Positions 2,364 to 24,467 of a stretch of 64,000 nt of DNA are shown piece by piece. How positions within the stretch are numbered: the stretch's first letter is position 1; the number at the start of each line of letters is the position of its first letter. A program made the position numbers and the translations under genes. Source of the DNA: a virus; the IMG/VR virus record IMGVR_UViG_3300027976_000033. One strand, given 5' to 3'. A model generated the notes under the pieces. The model saw only the letters and a program-made list of their open reading frames with translations, had not been told where the DNA came from and made no database searches.

Positions 2364-2602
2364 GCCACTTTATAGTACGAAATGACCAAGGTGATTACAT
2401 GTATCACCGAAGAAATACTGGCCACATGTATGAAGATCGCACCGCATGGGGTGACAACATCTGTGAAGCTAGAGTTTTTACTAAAAAGAGCGCTGCCACA
2501 AATTCTGCAAATCAAGCCACACTTCAACCATATGATAAAAAGCCAAAATTCACTTATGATATAATTAAGGTAGTTTTAATAGAGATAACAGATGAACTGT
2601 GA
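2360..2602 (+). CDS. hypothetical protein
   Basis: ATG overlaps the gp44 stop (ATGA), suggesting translational coupling; 80 aa. Confidence 0.4.
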   Translation: MSHFIVRNDQGDYMYHRRNTGHMYEDRTAWGDNICEARVFTKKSAATNSANQATLQPYDKKPKFTYDIIKVVLIEITDEL

Positions 2603-2768
2603 ATGTTGTGACAATCCTCTTAAGGACGGTGAAGAAGCTATTTTGAAACTTGGCACTGCGGATGGTCCAGTTAAAATGAAAATATGCGCAGATTGTGAGA
2701 GATTCTTAGAAACGGCAATAAGTGCGATGAAGGATATTGACATTGATAATGATAAATTCTCCGAATAG
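2592..2768 (+). CDS. small zinc-ribbon protein (two CxxC pairs)
   Basis: 58-aa ORF MNCECCDNP...ICADCERF; below the ORF-track length cutoff. Confidence 0.35.
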   Translation: MNCECCDNPLKDGEEAILKLGTADGPVKMKICADCERFLETAISAMKDIDIDNDKFSE

Positions 2769-3216
2769 TATTGATGCGGAACATCATGATTATACGGTCT
2801 TCTTAAGTGGTTCTCTATCAATAAACGATACGAGTATCTATTGGAGAAGAAAGCTAATAGCATGTCTTGGTCCTATAGATCACGATGTAGCATTTTTAAA
2901 TCCTCATAGAGACGATTTGATTGAAGATCCAACTTGTCAATACTATATTGAACATATAGAGTGGGTAATGAAATGTCTCAACACAGCTGACCAGATGGTA
3001 TTTTATTTTGATCCTAAAGTTGAAACTCCCGTTTCGATGATGGAACTTGGTGCGATTGCAAGCAATAGAAATGTGATCATATGTTGTCCAGATAAGTTCT
3101 GGAAAAAGACTATAGTGAATGTCATATGTAACGAATTTGATGTTCCCATATTTAAAACTATAGAAGAAACTGCAGGATTTTTAAAGAAAAGAATATTAGA
3201 GGATATTGAATCATGA
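2749..3216 (+). CDS. nucleoside 2-deoxyribosyltransferase-like (Rossmann-like) protein, putative
   Basis: VFLSGS...W...NPH pattern typical of the deoxyribosyltransferase/DUF1937-like fold; first ATG at 2749. Confidence 0.3.
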   Translation: MINSPNSIDAEHHDYTVFLSGSLSINDTSIYWRRKLIACLGPIDHDVAFLNPHRDDLIEDPTCQYYIEHIEWVMKCLNTADQMVFYFDPKVETPVSMMELGAIASNRNVIICCPDKFWKKTIVNVICNEFDVPIFKTIEETAGFLKKRILEDIES

Positions 3217-16374: not shown

Positions 16375-17025
16375 TTATGGCCAGTTATAAAATTTAACTG
16401 TTTGATTAATTCTATCATCTAAACCATGAGTACCGCCGTTGATTCTCTTTGTGAGATCGATAATTGCACTACGATTTACTCCTCTATCACAGATAGTCCA
16501 TAGACCATTTGAATCAAAAAAGAATTTTGCAGACTCGAATGCAAGTTCTGTTGCAACAATATCAGGATTTTTAAGAATATCTGGACGTTTTAAATATTTA
16601 GCAAAAGCCGTATAGTTATTTTTACCAGTTAGTTGAATAGCACCACGACCACGATATTTCCATCCGTCGCCAGATTTTTCATCACCGTTACCCATTCTAT
16701 TTGCATATACTCTATTTGCAATCATTTCAGGATTACGTGCATATTTTTTAGCTGTAGCGGCATTGAAATATTTTCCAAATGTCTTTAATAGACCTGATTC
16801 GGAATAATTTAAATTTTCGCTGAATTTTGTTAAACCTGCAGATTCATGAGAACATTGGCCGAAAAAGTGAGCCGATCTGATCTTCGATAATTTATAAAAC
16901 TTGGTCACTGCTCTAAATGTATTTGGTCCAAAAGCGCCGTCTGGATTTACACCAGATTTTGTTTGCAATAATTTTACTGGATTTGTTTCCACATCATTTC
17001 TCCTATCGTAATATATAATATACAT
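16375..17025 (-). CDS. endolysin: peptidoglycan-binding domain plus GH19 (chitinase-like) lysozyme domain
   Basis: GH19 signature NGDEKSGDGWKYRGRGAIQLTGKNNY; N-terminal PG_binding-like TKSGVNPDGAFGPNTFRAV. Confidence 0.7.
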   Translation of the reverse strand: MYIIYYDRRNDVETNPVKLLQTKSGVNPDGAFGPNTFRAVTKFYKLSKIRSAHFFGQCSHESAGLTKFSENLNYSESGLLKTFGKYFNAATAKKYARNPEMIANRVYANRMGNGDEKSGDGWKYRGRGAIQLTGKNNYTAFAKYLKRPDILKNPDIVATELAFESAKFFFDSNGLWTICDRGVNRSAIIDLTKRINGGTHGLDDRINQTVKFYNWP

Positions 17026-19943: not shown

Positions 19944-21014
19944 ATGTCATTACTAGAAAAAATTAAAAAGAATTCTACAATTAAAGAAAGTTCGATATTG
20001 TCGACATCAAAATTCTTTAATGAAAAGGATATGATCCAAACACAAATCCCGGCAATTAATGTTGCATACTCTGGTGATCTAGATGGCGGACTTACTCCTG
20101 GACTTACTCAGTGGGCTGGGCCATCTCGGCACTTTAAGACTTTGTTCTCTCTCATTTCAGCCAAAGCATATATGGACAAATACCCAGATGCCGTATTGTT
20201 ATTTTATGACTCAGAATTTGGTACACCAAAATCATATTTTGAAGCTGTTGGTATTGACATGGAAAGAGTTATCCACACACCACTGACAAACATCGAACAG
20301 ATGAAGTTTGATGTTATGACTCAATTGGAAGACATTATCCGTGGAGAACATCTGATAGTTCTCATCGATTCTATCGGCAACATGGCATCTAAGAAAGAAG
20401 TCGACGACGCTCTTGACGGTAAATCTGTTGCTGACATGACTCGTGCTAAGCAGCTTAAATCGTTCTTCAGAATGGTTACACCACATCTAAATCTCAAAGA
20501 TATTCCAATGATCGTCGTAAATCACGTTTACATGACTATGGAAATGTTCAGTAAACCCATCGTGTCAGGCGGAACGGGAGGAATGTACTCCTCGGATAAC
20601 GTGTTCATTATCGGTCGTCAACAGGATAAAGACGGTAAAGATCTTATGGGATATAACTTCATTATCAATGTTGAAAAATCTCGCTACGTTAAAGAAAAAT
20701 CTAAGATTCCAATTACAGTGAAATTCAAGGGTGGTATTTCTAAATGGTCTGGTTTGTTAGATATGGCTCTCGAATCTGGTCACGTTACGAAACCGAAGAA
20801 CGGTAGATATTCAAAAGTAGATCAAGAGACTGGTGAATTTGATGAAAAGGGCATAAAGATTCAAGCTACTGACACTGCTGATTTTTGGAAGCCAATTCTT
20901 GCGGATCAGAAATTTAAAGACTTTGTTAAAGCGAAATACTCAGTATCTCATGGTGCTTTGATTGAAGATGATTCTGAAGAAGTTTATGATAATTTGGAGG
21001 ACGAAAACGAGTAA
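19944..21014 (+). CDS. uvsX: recombinase UvsX (RecA/Rad51 family)
   Basis: near-colinear with T4 UvsX (SKFFNEKD, YPDAVLLFYDSEFG, VSDMTRAK, GGTGGMYS, NVEKSRYVKEKSK). Confidence 0.95.
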   Translation: MSLLEKIKKNSTIKESSILSTSKFFNEKDMIQTQIPAINVAYSGDLDGGLTPGLTQWAGPSRHFKTLFSLISAKAYMDKYPDAVLLFYDSEFGTPKSYFEAVGIDMERVIHTPLTNIEQMKFDVMTQLEDIIRGEHLIVLIDSIGNMASKKEVDDALDGKSVADMTRAKQLKSFFRMVTPHLNLKDIPMIVVNHVYMTMEMFSKPIVSGGTGGMYSSDNVFIIGRQQDKDGKDLMGYNFIINVEKSRYVKEKSKIPITVKFKGGISKWSGLLDMALESGHVTKPKNGRYSKVDQETGEFDEKGIKIQATDTADFWKPILADQKFKDFVKAKYSVSHGALIEDDSEEVYDNLEDENE

Positions 21015-21060
21015 CTTGGTATATATAGTTCGCTAATAGAATTCAACACGAAGGATCAAT

Positions 21061-21690
21061 ATGAGCATTGAAAATATTATATTAAGTAGTTTGTTATATA
21101 ATGAAGATTACGTCAGAAAGACGATAGCATTTTTAAAGCCAGAATATTTTCATAACGATGCTGATAAAGTTCTTTATAAATTAATAGAACACTATTTCCA
21201 GAAGTACAATGCCTCTCCAACAAAGGAAGCATTGCTTCTGGACATAGATAAAGTATCTTTACCGGAACACGTTTTTAAAGAGTGTGTCGAAAAGACCAAG
21301 ACTTTAGAATATACCGAACAACAGATGGTTTGGCTTACAGATACTACAGAGAAATTCTGTCAAGACAAAGCTCTCTACAATGCGATCATGGATTCAATCA
21401 AAATTATCGATGACGATGATGACAAAAATCCATTATCTAAGGGTTCTATTCCACAAATTCTGAGTGACGCTTTAGCAGTATCGTTTGATACTGATATCGG
21501 TCATGATTATTTAGAAAATTCTGAAGAGAGATTCGAGTATTATCATTTAGCTGAAGCGAAAATACCATTCGACATTGAGCATTTTAATAATATCACTAAG
21601 GGTGGTGTTTCTAGAAAAACACTTACAATCATACTTGCTGGTTGTGTTCATCCATCAACAAAAATTAAAGTGCGAATTAGAAAAGTGTAA
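21061..21690 (+). CDS. 41: replicative helicase gp41, fragment 1: N-extein (21061-21642) plus 15-aa split-intein N half
   Basis: DnaB/gp41 N-terminal domain; ends ...KTLTIILAG|CVHPSTKIKVRIRKV* inside the Walker A loop (T4 LLAG-VNVGKS). Confidence 0.85.
   Translation: MSIENIILSSLLYNEDYVRKTIAFLKPEYFHNDADKVLYKLIEHYFQKYNASPTKEALLLDIDKVSLPEHVFKECVEKTKTLEYTEQQMVWLTDTTEKFCQDKALYNAIMDSIKIIDDDDDKNPLSKGSIPQILSDALAVSFDTDIGHDYLENSEERFEYYHLAEAKIPFDIEHFNNITKGGVSRKTLTIILAGCVHPSTKIKVRIRKV
21643..21687 (+). other. atypical split-intein N half (IntN, 15 aa)
   Basis: Cys-initiated 15-residue peptide between the extein and an in-frame stop; complemented by a 128-aa IntC downstream. Confidence 0.65.
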
Positions 21691-22309
21691 ATCCGCGCTG
21701 GTATCCAATATCAATATACGATTGCAACAAATCAGGCTTTATTCTAGTTCTATGTTTTCCATTAGTTACACATATGAAGCCAGTAAGAGCTCTGCCGCCC
21801 TTAGCACAAATAATTTTTTTTACATCTGGATCGAAAAAGGCTCCTATTTTATTTTCTCTTTGTGTTTTAGAGCCAGCAGTTCCACCCTTTGAACACATGT
21901 TTTTTCTAAAGACTGGATCGAAAGTTCCTACTTTATTTTTGGATTGTGTCACCGCCGCCTTTCTGGCGCTAGCTCTGATTGATTCTTTATTATTTTTATA
22001 TTTATCAGAATGAAATCCGATTTTGTTTTTATGACAGAACTTACCAGTGATAATTCGCTGTTTAGTTGAAAGCTTCGCACCCAACATGTGCATAGATCTT
22101 AAATCATTTGGATTTTTATATATTTTCCACAATAAGAAATGAGCAATTATGTGTTCTCTAATATTTAGATATGTTAAATTTTCTTGTAAATCGCCGCCGC
22201 CCATGTGTTTTGGAATTATGTGATGAGCATGTAATCCGCTGGCGTAGCCATATTTTTCTTTTAATGATTTTCTATTTTCACACAATGATGAATAGATTAT
22301 ATCATACAT
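21677..22309 (-). CDS. HNH homing endonuclease (free-standing, opposite strand, between the split-intein halves)
   Basis: GLHAHHIIPKHMGGGD ... NLTYLNIREHIIAH HNH motif. Confidence 0.75.
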   Translation of the reverse strand: MYDIIYSSLCENRKSLKEKYGYASGLHAHHIIPKHMGGGDLQENLTYLNIREHIIAHFLLWKIYKNPNDLRSMHMLGAKLSTKQRIITGKFCHKNKIGFHSDKYKNNKESIRASARKAAVTQSKNKVGTFDPVFRKNMCSKGGTAGSKTQRENKIGAFFDPDVKKIICAKGGRALTGFICVTNGKHRTRIKPDLLQSYIDIGYQRGFTLF

Positions 22310-22323
22310 GTTTTAATCTTTCG

Positions 22324-22331
22324 TATAAATA
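22324..22331 (+). promoter_or_regulatory. T4-type late promoter octamer TATAAATA upstream of gp41 fragment 2
   Basis: exact TATAAATA 46 nt upstream of ATG 22377. Confidence 0.4.
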
Positions 22332-22376
22332 TTATGCCAGTGCCGGCTAGTAATATTTATTATTTTGGAGTTTTTA

Positions 22377-22760
22377 ATGAATAATTGGGTAGAAAAAGAA
22401 ATAGAAATAGGTGCCGTAGATGACTTGCTTAAAGAGGGTTATGAAGTAGAGGTATATTCTCCAGATGGTTGGGTTGGCATTAATTTTTTTGTTGATAAGG
22501 GTTCATATGAAGAATATATCATTACAACCGCAAATGGATTAGAAGTCAAATGTAACGCGGATCATTTATTTAAGTCTGTTGATGATGAATGGATTACTGC
22601 ACAAGAGTTAGAATATATGCAAGATCCTGTAGAATTAGTAACGATACATGGACCATCATTAGCATTTACCATTAAGACAGATAATATAATTCCAATTGTA
22701 GACATAAATGTTAATCATAAAAATAAGCGATATTATACAAATGGTATAGAATCACACAAT
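22377..22760 (+). other. atypical split-intein C half (IntC, 128 aa, contains block B)
   Basis: contains EVKCNADHLF (block B) and terminal GIESHN followed by +1 Thr. Confidence 0.65.
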
Positions 22761-23558
22761 ACTGGCGCGGGCAAAAGTTTGGCAATGTGCCACATGGCAG
22801 CTGGCAATCTCATGGATAATAAGAGTGTCCTATATATCACGCTCGAAATGGCTGAAGAAAAGATCGCAGAAAGAATTGATGCTAATCTTCTAAATATTAC
22901 CATGGACGATTTGGATAAAACTCCAAAAGCCTACTACGATAAAATGATTGCTAAGCTAAAGTCCAGAACTATGGGCAAGCTTATCATTAAAGAATATCCA
23001 ACTTCAACAGCCCATGCAAATCACTTTCGTCATCTTCTTAATGAATTAAAAATTAAGAAGAATTTTATACCAGACATCATCTATATCGATTACATCAATC
23101 TATGCGGATCAGTCAGAATTAAGGCCGGTGCTAATGCTAACTCGTACACGATGATTAAGTCGATTGCCGAAGAACTTCGTGGACTTGCCGTTGAACACAA
23201 CGTTCCTATCATTAGTGCTACACAGGTTACTCGAGCTGGATATGGTTCAAGCGATATTGAAATTACCGATACATCTGAATGTATCTTCCAGGATGAAATG
23301 ATTGAACTGCGTGATGGTAGTTCTAAAATGATTAAAGATATTGTAGTTGGAGATCAAATTATATCTAATGATCAATATAAAACGGTTCATATGGTTCATC
23401 ATTCGAAACTCAAAGACTGTTATAAGATAAAAACATCAGCTGGCAAAGAAATAATTGTAAGCAAAGATCATGTATTTCCAACAAAGCGTGGCAGAATATC
23501 AATCGAAACTGGTTTGAGTGTTGGTGATAATCTTAATAGTAGGAACCGTGATGAGTAA
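22377..23558 (+). CDS. 41: gp41 fragment 2: 128-aa IntC (22377-22760) plus central extein (22761-23279) plus IntN of second split intein (23280-23555)
   Basis: ...NGIESHN|TGAGKSLAMCHMA completes the Walker A motif; DnaB RecA-like core; ends ...DTSE|CIFQDEM...NRDE*. Confidence 0.85.
   Translation: MNNWVEKEIEIGAVDDLLKEGYEVEVYSPDGWVGINFFVDKGSYEEYIITTANGLEVKCNADHLFKSVDDEWITAQELEYMQDPVELVTIHGPSLAFTIKTDNIIPIVDINVNHKNKRYYTNGIESHNTGAGKSLAMCHMAAGNLMDNKSVLYITLEMAEEKIAERIDANLLNITMDDLDKTPKAYYDKMIAKLKSRTMGKLIIKEYPTSTAHANHFRHLLNELKIKKNFIPDIIYIDYINLCGSVRIKAGANANSYTMIKSIAEELRGLAVEHNVPIISATQVTRAGYGSSDIEITDTSECIFQDEMIELRDGSSKMIKDIVVGDQIISNDQYKTVHMVHHSKLKDCYKIKTSAGKEIIVSKDHVFPTKRGRISIETGLSVGDNLNSRNRDE
23280..23555 (+). 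other. split-intein N half (IntN, 92 aa), gp41-1-like
   Basis: CIFQDEMIELRDGS ... KDHVFPT (block B) ... stop; same pattern as described gp41-type split IntN. Confidence 0.8.
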
Positions 23559-23817
23559 TATTTATTTAGCATGCTTAGCTAAAGCAGAGTACTTGATGGA
23601 AAATGGTTATCCAGTTGGTAAGATTGATTTGGCACAATTGACCGATCTTCTTGTTAAATTGGAAAATGAGAAAATAGAAAAGCAAACACTCTCAGATGCT
23701 GTTATAGATTATAATGATACTATTGTCGAAATCATAGAGCTTGGAGAACTGGAAACAGTCGATCTTTCTGTGTCTGGTGATAATCTTTTCTATTGTAATG
23801 ACATATTAACAAAGAAT
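23551..23817 (+). other. split-intein C half (IntC; start uncertain, 89 aa from first ATG)
   Basis: blocks F/G VDLSVSGDNLFYCNDILTKN then +1 Ser. Confidence 0.6.
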
Positions 23818-24102
23818 AGTTTTGGACTTCCCGCCACTGCAGATTTAATGTTTGCTCTAGTTACATCTGAAGAGATGGAAAAATTAAATCAAGTTATGGT
23901 GAAGCAACTTAAAAACAGATATTCAGACATATCAAAGGATAGGAGATTTTTTGTTGGACTAGATAAGAGTAGAATGAAATTTTATGATCTAGAAGATAGT
24001 GCACAACGAGTTTTAAATGACGATGTTGCTATAATGGATCAAACGCCGACTGGTAAAAGAATTAATGATGAACTTAGAGATAAAATGAAAGATTTTAAAT
24101 GA
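23551..24102 (+). CDS. 41: gp41 fragment 3: IntC (23551-23817) plus C-extein (23818-24102)
   Basis: ATG overlaps the fragment-2 stop (ATGAGTAA); ...VDLSVSGDNLFYCNDILTKN|SFGLPATADLMFAL continues T4 gp41 ...SAGLPATADFMLAV. Confidence 0.8.
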   Translation: MSNIYLACLAKAEYLMENGYPVGKIDLAQLTDLLVKLENEKIEKQTLSDAVIDYNDTIVEIIELGELETVDLSVSGDNLFYCNDILTKNSFGLPATADLMFALVTSEEMEKLNQVMVKQLKNRYSDISKDRRFFVGLDKSRMKFYDLEDSAQRVLNDDVAIMDQTPTGKRINDELRDKMKDFK

Positions 24103-24269
24103 GCTATAAAATTATTGATAATACACTCGTAGAAAATAAAACTGATATTACTATTATTCAATCTAAAGATCGTAAAACATTAGTAAATATGAAACGACAT
24201 TTGTGCATGGGTGGTGGTTTTAACGGCTTTACACCGGCATTCTTTTTAAACAAACCAGGAGTAAAATAA
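24099..24269 (+). CDS. hypothetical small protein
   Basis: 56-aa ORF; ATG overlaps the gp41 stop. Confidence 0.3.
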   Translation: MSYKIIDNTLVENKTDITIIQSKDRKTLVNMKRHLCMGGGFNGFTPAFFLNKPGVK

Positions 24270-24467
24270 ATGGCTAACAACACATCTTCATCTAGCACCG
24301 GTGGCGTAGGATTTTTAGGACTACTTACTATCGTATTCATTACGCTAAAACTTACAGGATATGTTGCCTGGAATTGGTTTTGGGTATTGTCGCCCATCAT
24401 TATTCCATTTAGTATTGCAATATTGATAATTTTGATATGGATAATTGTTACTATTTTTAAAAGATAG
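24270..24467 (+). CDS. small membrane protein (two TM helices)
   Basis: hydrophobic 65-aa ORF with coupled start. Confidence 0.45.
   Translation: MANNTSSSSTGGVGFLGLLTIVFITLKLTGYVAWNWFWVLSPIIIPFSIAILIILIWIIVTIFKR

Follow-up and report, generated by a model that had tools for sequence, protein, structure and literature searches.

A Three-gene gp41 Helicase with a Putative VidaL-like Split Intein in the Walker A Loop of an Uncultured T4-like Phage

The gp41 helicase locus of an uncultured T4-like phage, contained in the 64,000-nucleotide stretch of IMG/VR virus record IMGVR_UViG_3300027976_000033 (the window), raises the question of how a replicative helicase can be made from a gene that is interrupted inside its own ATP-binding loop. 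The gp41 of this phage is tripartite and consists of three separate gene products, with the halves of one intein (intein 1) flanking the break in the Walker A loop and those of a second (intein 2) flanking a break further downstream. In the best explanation, which we hold with high confidence, three genes encode gp41, and two protein trans-splicing reactions join their products into the complete enzyme. Homology and structural modeling support intein 1 as a natural, atypically split class-1 HINT intein of the VidaL-like S1 type placed in the gp41 Walker A loop; this reading rests on the homology and the position of the split site, the predicted fold, the conservation of the family including synonymous change, and the colinear helicase that remains after removal of the intein.

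Organization of the gp41 Locus

Positions 20400-24400 were read and their open reading frames (ORFs) listed, and all sequence elements described by the first-pass annotation of the window are present. Fragment 1 of gp41 is an ORF of 209 residues on the plus strand (21061-21690) ending ...GGVSRKTLTIILAG|CVHPSTKIKVRIRKV*. Its N-extein (21061..21642, 194 residues, C terminus ...TLTIILAG) matches the Pfam DnaB N-terminal domain (E = 2e-5) and is colinear with the gp41 proteins of Methylophilales phage Melnitz and Pelagibacter phage HTVC008M. The remainder is the N-terminal intein fragment IntN1 (21643..21690), 15 residues of sequence CVHPSTKIKVRIRKV encoded by 21643-21687 with a net charge of +5, followed by the stop codon at 21688-21690. 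Fragment 2, also on the plus strand, opens with the C-terminal intein fragment IntC1 (22377..22760, the first 128 residues, net charge -15), which ends ...YYTNGIESHN|TGAGKSLAMC and is followed by the gp41 middle extein (22761..23279, 173 residues, Pfam DnaB_C E = 1.2e-14) running from Thr+1 of the Walker A motif TGAGKS to ...EITDTSE. The C-terminal part of fragment 2 is IntN2 (23280..23558 including the stop, 92 residues, CIFQDEMIELRDG...NSRNRDE), in which the Pfam Intein_splicing and Hint models match at fragment 2 residues 298-369. Fragment 3 (23551-24102, plus strand) encodes the 89-residue IntC2 (23551..23817, ending ...LFYCNDILTKN) and a 94-residue C-extein (23818..24102 including the stop), which begins with Ser+1 of SFGLPATADLMF and is likewise colinear with the Melnitz and HTVC008M gp41 sequences.

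The first-pass annotation had described fragment 1 as ending after 15 intein residues (...KTLTIILAG|CVHPSTKIKVRIRKV*, stop at 21688-21690) and fragment 2 as opening with a 128-residue intein piece that contains block B (...VKCNADHLF...) and restores Walker A (...GIESHN|TGAGKS), and both descriptions are borne out. The two halves stand as described, and what had been overlooked is the second split intein and the third gene (23551-24102). IntN1 and IntC1 are separate ORFs, the former with its own stop (21688-21690) and the latter with its own GGAG-ATG (22367/22377), and an antisense gene lies between them. The ribosome-binding site GGAG of fragment 2, read from the sequence, occupies 22367..22370 on the plus strand, 6 nucleotides before the ATG at 22377, and purine-rich sites are found in the equivalent position upstream of the fragment 2 ATG in three related loci (L003, L004 and L007). 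A TTG at 22365, the start given by the mechanical ORF list, was considered and rejected; the start of fragment 2 is taken as ATG 22377 because the GGAG lies inside the TTG extension and the relatives begin at the equivalent ATG.

Virtual splicing of the three exteins gives a product of 194 + 173 + 94 = 461 residues with an identity of 56% to gp41 of Melnitz and 53% to that of HTVC008M. Compared with these intein-free proteins the product is gap-free at both junctions, ..LAG|TG(A/V)GKS and ..DTSE|SFGLPATAD. Over 21061-24102, ENA ERZ27247425 and Logan SRR5208770, two further public assemblies, agree with the window at every base, and a sequencing error at the stop codon 21688 is therefore very unlikely; taken together with five diverged loci that stop 15-21 residues into the intein, this answers the initial doubt that such an error might hide a longer IntN. 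A megablast search of 21061-24102 against 50,697 phage records gave no match, and by this measure the phage appears to be without a close cultured relative.

Homology and Predicted Fold of Intein 1

The best Protein Data Bank match of the fused 143-residue IntN1 and IntC1 is the VidaL intein (6vgv) with E = 3.8e-11 by phmmer, and the corresponding fusion from a relative gives E = 9.2e-12. IntC1 aligns to VidaL residues 11-141 in this search, and the VidaL junction ...TKKG|MIEEKK falls opposite ...IRKV|MNNWVEKE of the fused intein 1. Matches of the fused intein to its metagenomic relatives range from E 1e-35 to 1e-60.

An AlphaFold2 model of the fused 144-mer of the window, calculated with 20 IntC-only relatives as the alignment, has a predicted local distance difference test score (pLDDT) of 96.4 and a predicted template modeling score of 0.86. 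IntN1 residues 7-13 are predicted as a strand (pLDDT about 95), so that the 15-mer supplies a strand of the HINT model, as the first-pass annotation had wondered, and the split is located in the loop formed by residues 14-19 before the strand 20-25. A Foldseek search with the model ranks 6vgv first with a template modeling (TM) score of 0.88, a root mean square deviation of 1.4 Å and 28% identity. Inteins account for 48 of the 50 listed Foldseek matches, and the other two are the related BIL2/HINT domain. By both sequence (E = 3.8e-11) and structure (TM 0.88) the closest solved relative of intein 1 is VidaL, and the near-N-terminal split topology originally proposed is upheld by the VidaL homology, the same split position, the fold model, the family conservation and the colinearity.

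The residues associated with intein chemistry are in place. Cys1 directly follows ...ILAG and does not vary among the six loci or the contiguous relatives, and IntC1 contains the block B His (..CNADH..), block F (IVDINVNH) and block G (..GIESHN) followed by Thr+1. Alignment of 7-21 family members shows Cys1, the block B His78, the block F Asp124, His142, Asn143 and Thr+1 to be invariant or nearly so. The charges of the two pieces are complementary, +5 for IntN1 and -15 for IntC1. Intein 1 is a real intein and is probably functional.

Split and Contiguous Relatives at the P-loop Site

An initial single-sequence, word-indexed homologue search retrieved 4 proteins, and word-indexed and profile searches together gave 41 clusters; when 1.84 billion representatives were searched exhaustively by HMMER with a profile built from IntC only, 1790 proteins were matched at E <= 1e-3 and 378 at <= 1e-10. 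Loci with flanking sequence number six, the window and L003-L007, the latter five being found through viral-contig scans and look-up of the encoding contigs. In all five the fragment 1 ORF breaks off where it does in the window, 15-21 residues into the intein, and the IntC ORFs start within a few residues of a common point (MxxWxEKE...). The IntC ORFs that reach block G all end ..SHN|T(G/N/A)xGK(S/T), which is the gp41 P-loop.

The C terminus of fragment 1 follows the pattern CVHP(S/A/D/E)TK(V/I)(K/T)(V/I)R(I/Y/F)R(K/R) in these loci, after which come 1-7 variable residues and the stop; the variable tail of IntN is read-through into the inserted gene. Any two loci are separated in the 14 core IntN codons by 2-8 synonymous changes and by 1-5 others that are mostly conservative, and IntC is just 50-60% identical across the loci. 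The mostly synonymous or conservative character of the changes in the IntN core points to purifying selection on the peptide.

A rough sort of 180 retrieved sequences assigned 36 to an N-terminal IntC followed by the gp41 P-loop and 15-19 to a one-piece intein at the same gp41 site, the rest being in UvsX/RecA-like proteins and further P-loop ATPases. The split form therefore occurs in gp41 in at least 36 retrieved cluster representatives and is less rare than the handful of metagenomic cases implied at first pass. The contiguous forms among the retrieved sequences include P0042 (..VLAG|CVHPSTRVNIQYRKNNSQSQQKEICIAE...SHN|TGVGKS), P0047, P0051, P0063 and others. Locus L014 carries at the same site a contiguous mini-intein of 141 residues that is 53% identical to the fused halves of the window over all 143 residues. 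This one-piece intein shows directly that the 15-mer and the 128-mer together make up a single domain, and that the split arose by insertion into the β2/β3 loop. The junction in L014 (1655-3424 of IMGVR_UViG_3300020193_000020) reads ..RFKKK-MIWTEKE.. with a Met exactly at the IntC start of the split relatives, and its contiguous state could be a secondary re-fusion following loss of the endonuclease gene. The L014 gene also has a split intein at the gp41-1 site.

Several relatives depart from the common arrangement. In L003 (2-2549 of JGI 3300028388) a tandem duplication (TKGGLPNKTLNIALAG twice) lies just upstream of IntN, and ~100 central helicase residues are missing between the two ORFs, so that this copy is either degenerate or misassembled. 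P0042 (735 residues) is a gp41 with three inteins, of which those at the P-loop and the gp41-1 site are contiguous and the one at the TSE site is a split IntN. P0046 (707 residues) has an N-terminal atypical IntC and, five residues on in the same Walker A, a second large intein (TNVGK|A...THN|S). Nine proteins of 1100-1970 residues (P0075, P0083, P0088, P0093, P0098, P0108, P0134, P0145 and P0151) contain 8-14 matches each to positions ~8-62 of the IntC1 profile (the ..EVEVDSPDGWV.. hairpin), which suggests that part of intein 1 may be related to a repeat module used in other proteins. The intein family is absent from standard annotation, its members being labeled "hypothetical protein" in NCBI and the UvsX pieces of PA5oct-like phages having no intein label.

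The HNH Endonuclease Gene between the Halves of Intein 1

The gene at 21677..22309 on the minus strand, antisense to gp41, encodes a 210-residue protein of PHROG 655 with an N-terminal HNH motif LHAHHIIPKH...NLTYLNIREHIIAH, and 14 nucleotides at its 3' end are shared, tail-to-tail, with the end of the IntN1 ORF. The match to PHROG 655 "homing endonuclease" has E = 8.6e-20, the Pfam HNH model is sub-threshold (E = 0.005), and tblastn shows 27-41% identity over 49-84% of the protein to annotated MobD/MobE-like genes of T4-like phages. The opposite-strand HNH endonuclease gene noted at first pass between the two halves is thereby confirmed as an ORF, by its motif, by PHROG 655 and by its MobD/MobE likeness, and its product is predicted to be a free-standing Mob-like HNH homing endonuclease.

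A homologous HNH gene lies between the intein halves in six of six loci, with pairwise identities of 28-57%, those of L003-L007 being 28-49% identical to the gene of the window; five of the six genes are antisense, and L003 alone has it on the same strand. A base-composition profile of the HNH insert does not show a foreign-DNA signature. By analogy with the Mob endonucleases and with the fractured genes described by Dassa et al., the enzyme probably cuts endonuclease-free alleles and spreads with the intein. In L005 an extra ORF of 187 residues (2442-3005) is found between the antisense HNH gene and IntC, and the inserted cassette can thus hold further cargo.

Intein 2, a Canonical gp41-1-like Split Intein

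Intein 2 matches the gp41-1 intein structure 6qaz in two stretches with E = 7.5e-18 and has Cys1 and Ser+1 at its boundaries (TSE|C...TKN|S). The ATG of IntC2 overlaps the stop of IntN2 (ATGA), with no endonuclease gene between the halves. IntC2 consists of an N-terminal extension of ~55 residues and a 34-residue core, and the extension is conserved in L012 and L013. A 354-residue Vsr-like endonuclease gene separates the intein 2 halves in L012, and the equivalent gene appears from this comparison to have been lost in the window. The insertion site TSE|SFG is 12 residues downstream of the gp41-1 site SGY|SSS (L017 is gp41-1 itself, SGY|SSSDV), and both sites carry inteins in P0042. A middle fragment of the three-piece form, IntC1-cargo-IntN2, is present among the retrieved proteins only in the window and in P0043.

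Proposed Assembly and Origin of the Helicase

The basic 15-mer of IntN1 would dock into the acidic, nearly complete IntC1 as the missing β1/β2 strands of the class-1 HINT fold. Cys1 would then undergo an N-S acyl shift, the thioester would be handed to Thr+1, Asn143 would cyclize, and an O-N shift would restore the Walker A loop ...LAG-TGAGKS. This chemistry is the established standard pathway of inteins. The gp41-1-like intein 2 (Cys1/Ser+1) would rejoin ...DTSE-SFGLPATAD to give the 461-residue helicase. The P-loop is indispensable for a replicative helicase, and both splicing reactions must therefore be efficient in vivo. As to its origin, a Mob-like HNH gene probably inserted into the loop after β2 of a contiguous P-loop mini-intein, creating the atypical split, with the intein and the endonuclease gene since traveling jointly as a composite mobile element.

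Several points weigh against this assembly scheme. Splicing, its chemistry and endonuclease-driven homing are what we infer, and what the data contain directly is anatomy, homology, predicted fold, conservation and colinearity. Block B of intein 1 has Asn in place of Thr, giving NxxH instead of the TxxH of most class-1 inteins, and Cys1/Thr+1 is a minority pair found in about 12% of inteins (PMC11766414). The Pfam model PF14890 Intein_splicing scores 16.7 bits on intein 1 against a cut-off of 35.8 and is below threshold, and TIGR01445 reaches 22.5 against 24.5 and does so only with the halves fused; these sub-threshold results of curated intein profiles are a sensitivity limit of the models and not a structural failure. 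The AlphaFold2 model of the fused intein 2, calculated from a 3-row alignment, has a pLDDT of 48.6. The HNH protein of the window has 210 residues compared with about 215-271 in some relatives, leaving its endonuclease activity uncertain. Upstream of fragment 2, behind the antisense gene, scans for sigma-70-like promoters and for terminators are at the level of chance, as is the occurrence of the octamer TATAAATA discussed below.

The NxxH block B and the indirect case for splicing would also fit a very unlikely arrangement in which the intein halves are splicing-dead and serve as a non-covalent dimerization module, gp41 working as an unspliced multi-chain complex like the NrdA halves of Aeh1. 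Phage genes broken by free-standing endonucleases can indeed work unspliced, as in Aeh1 nrdA, which holds an HNH gene and no intein (PMC2677866). A 143-residue domain retained inside Walker A between ...LAG and TGAGKS is, however, hard to square with ATP binding, no family member departs from the nucleophiles or the His-Asn dyad, and VidaL, the nearest relative with a solved structure, splices rapidly in trans (PMC13014065). The prospect that the locus represents a helicase pseudogene in decay or an artifact of sequencing or assembly, with a premature stop in a contiguous intein and a chimeric join, is extremely remote. The metagenomic source, the duplication and missing central helicase segment of L003, and the IntC frame of L004, which is broken before block G, are what might be cited for it. 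The 3 kb are nevertheless identical in two other assemblies, and the architecture recurs in five diverged loci and about 36 protein clusters. The three ORFs are intact with their own starts and the spliced product is colinear, the IntN codon changes are mostly synonymous, and the sequence between the halves is a complete antisense gene, not out-of-frame intein sequence.

A regulatory purpose of the split was also considered, in which TATAAATA acts as a late promoter that drives fragment 2 and so times helicase assembly, and expression of the HNH gene is held down by antisense transcripts from gp41. The octamer is present at 22324..22331 on the plus strand, 45 nucleotides upstream of the fragment 2 ATG, where the first-pass annotation had placed it and called it a late promoter. 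Nine of its ten copies in the window are on the plus, coding strand, with several just upstream of starts, and the HNH gene is antisense in five of the six loci. Ten copies are nonetheless close to the 9.3 expected by chance, the octamer was not found upstream of IntC in L003-L007, and in L003 the HNH gene is on the same strand, so that the octamer itself stands and its reading as a promoter is unsupported. In T4 the replicative helicase is needed before late transcription, which also counts against a timing role, and the regulatory explanation is accordingly improbable. The octamer forms one arm of an imperfect inverted repeat at 22325-22362 (ATAAATATTATGCC...GGC..TAGTAATATTTAT) in the 67-nucleotide spacer between the divergent starts of the HNH gene and fragment 2, and RNA folding of the hairpin in this spacer is no more stable than that of shuffled sequence (z = -0.25).

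Comparison with Known Split Inteins and Fractured Genes

Four natural atypically split inteins are known (PMC13014065, PMC10189870). AceL-TerL (IntN of 25 residues) and GOS-TerL (37 residues) are split after helix α1 (S2), whereas VidaL (16 residues) and the "record-short" PolB16 OarG (15 residues) are split after β2 (S1) (PMC13014065, PMC10189870). The 15-residue IntN of intein 1 ties with PolB16 OarG as the shortest natural N-intein. AceL-TerL and GOS-TerL resemble intein 1 in being natural with a short IntN and differ in their terminase host and in the later S2 split. PolB16 OarG shares the S1 split and the IntN length, but its host is PolB, its nucleophiles are Ser1/Ser+1, and the structural match is weak (Foldseek rank 47, TM 0.59).

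VidaL (6vgv/6vgw; Burton et al. 2020, cited in PMC13014065) has, like intein 1, Cys1 and a break in the same S1 loop after β2, with an IntN of 16 compared with 15 residues, and both are situated in the P-loop of a phage RecA-fold ATPase. The identity between them is about 28%, and VidaL uses Ser+1 (its chain ends ...SHA-SG) whereas intein 1 uses Thr+1 in gp41 TGAGKS. Close relatives of VidaL in PA5oct-like phages end SHN|SGKS in UvsX, and the sequences suggest that VidaL may itself derive from UvsX. Such a VidaL-like atypically split intein is found in UvsX of PA5oct, a cultured jumbo phage, and of about ten of its relatives, among them MIJ3. The locus in PA5oct (NC_071039.1 134722-137728; L008 1495-2766, L011 123-368) comprises gp276, ending ..GESG|CLPETAKVKIRLSKKQS*, a same-strand ORF of 477 residues with a Vsr-like C terminus, and a "UvsX-like recombinase" coding sequence MEYIEKEVTV...SHN|SGKS. 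Thiel et al. 2014 are said to list a Lake Vida atypical intein "VidaL T4Lh", possibly hosted by a helicase; a full-text search for "T4Lh" returned nothing relevant and did not confirm this. If the listing is correct, a relative in a helicase host would already be on record.

The contiguous gp41 P-loop mini-inteins (L014, P0042, P0047, P0051 and P0063) share with intein 1 the site ..AG|C...SHN|T.xGKS and the CVHPxTK N terminus; each is a single polypeptide whose β2/β3 loop holds no endonuclease gene, and they correspond to the unsplit state. The fractured genes of Dassa et al. 2009 comprise three genes on one strand with short non-coding spacers and GIY-YIG or Vsr-like endonucleases, and are broken at the canonical N4/C2 endonuclease-insertion region with one unexplained exception (PMC2677866). 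A homing endonuclease gene that is free-standing and lies between the halves is common to these loci and intein 1, and the differences are three, namely the antisense overlapping gene, its Mob-like HNH type, and the S1 break after residue 15. The relatives of intein 2 conform to the Dassa pattern, with the endonuclease gene lost in the window as in Dassa's gp41-7 locus. The MobD/MobE HNH homing endonucleases are free-standing between or within conserved replication genes, whereas the gene in the window lies inside the intein frame, antisense and overlapping the tail of IntN.

Novelty and Potential Use

Intein 1 is of a kind already known and conceptually expected, namely a VidaL-family intein that is naturally split at the atypical S1 position within a fractured phage gene. 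What is new is the position in gp41 Walker A and the use of Thr+1, the antisense orientation of the Mob-like HNH gene, how large the unannotated family is, and the three-piece architecture. In the searchable literature, of which coverage is incomplete, no report came to light of two split inteins joining a natural protein; it is possible, though somewhat doubtful, that this gp41 is the first natural protein described as assembled from three gene products via two orthogonal split inteins of opposite topology (S1 with Cys1/Thr+1 and canonical with Cys1/Ser+1). The middle fragment, an atypical IntC, a cargo and a canonical IntN, has the design that chemists use for "protein transposition" with VidaL or Cat together with Cfa (PMC11185735).

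Short N-inteins of natural origin are valued because a synthetic peptide can attach probes or modified segments to proteins, and among the four cited natural atypical split inteins, with an IntN of 15-37 residues, only VidaL is both very short and fast. The locus adds a homologue of VidaL at 28% identity with another +1 nucleophile (Thr) and another extein context. The dozens of diverged split variants and the contiguous forms are a basis for consensus design. The presence of inteins 1 and 2 together in one essential protein implies that they are orthogonal in nature, and if both work fast and stay orthogonal to each other, as would be needed for an essential helicase, they would be a ready-made, co-evolved pair for one-pot three-piece ligation, with an N-terminal tag that could shrink to the conserved 14 residues. 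Represented among these loci are a contiguous mini-intein, an intein split with an endonuclease gene in either orientation and, at the second site, one split without an endonuclease gene, and the family shows that an HNH gene can break an intein outside the canonical endonuclease-insertion region.

Other Genes of the Window

Searches of the whole window found no inteins or HNH paralogues beyond the gp41 locus and no tRNAs. Two adjacent, overlapping paralogues at 57659-58402 and 58359-59336, both on the minus strand and among the very few minus-strand genes of the window, share H(L/M)PAYTS(T/S)S and E-x-E-containing motifs and by eye look like ADP-ribosyltransferases (Alt/Mod-like). Just upstream of the DNA polymerase gene, a minus-strand ORF at 16375-17025 with the motifs ..CSHES.. 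and ..RGAIQLTG..NY.. by eye resembles endolysins of the GH19-type lysozyme or chitinase kind.

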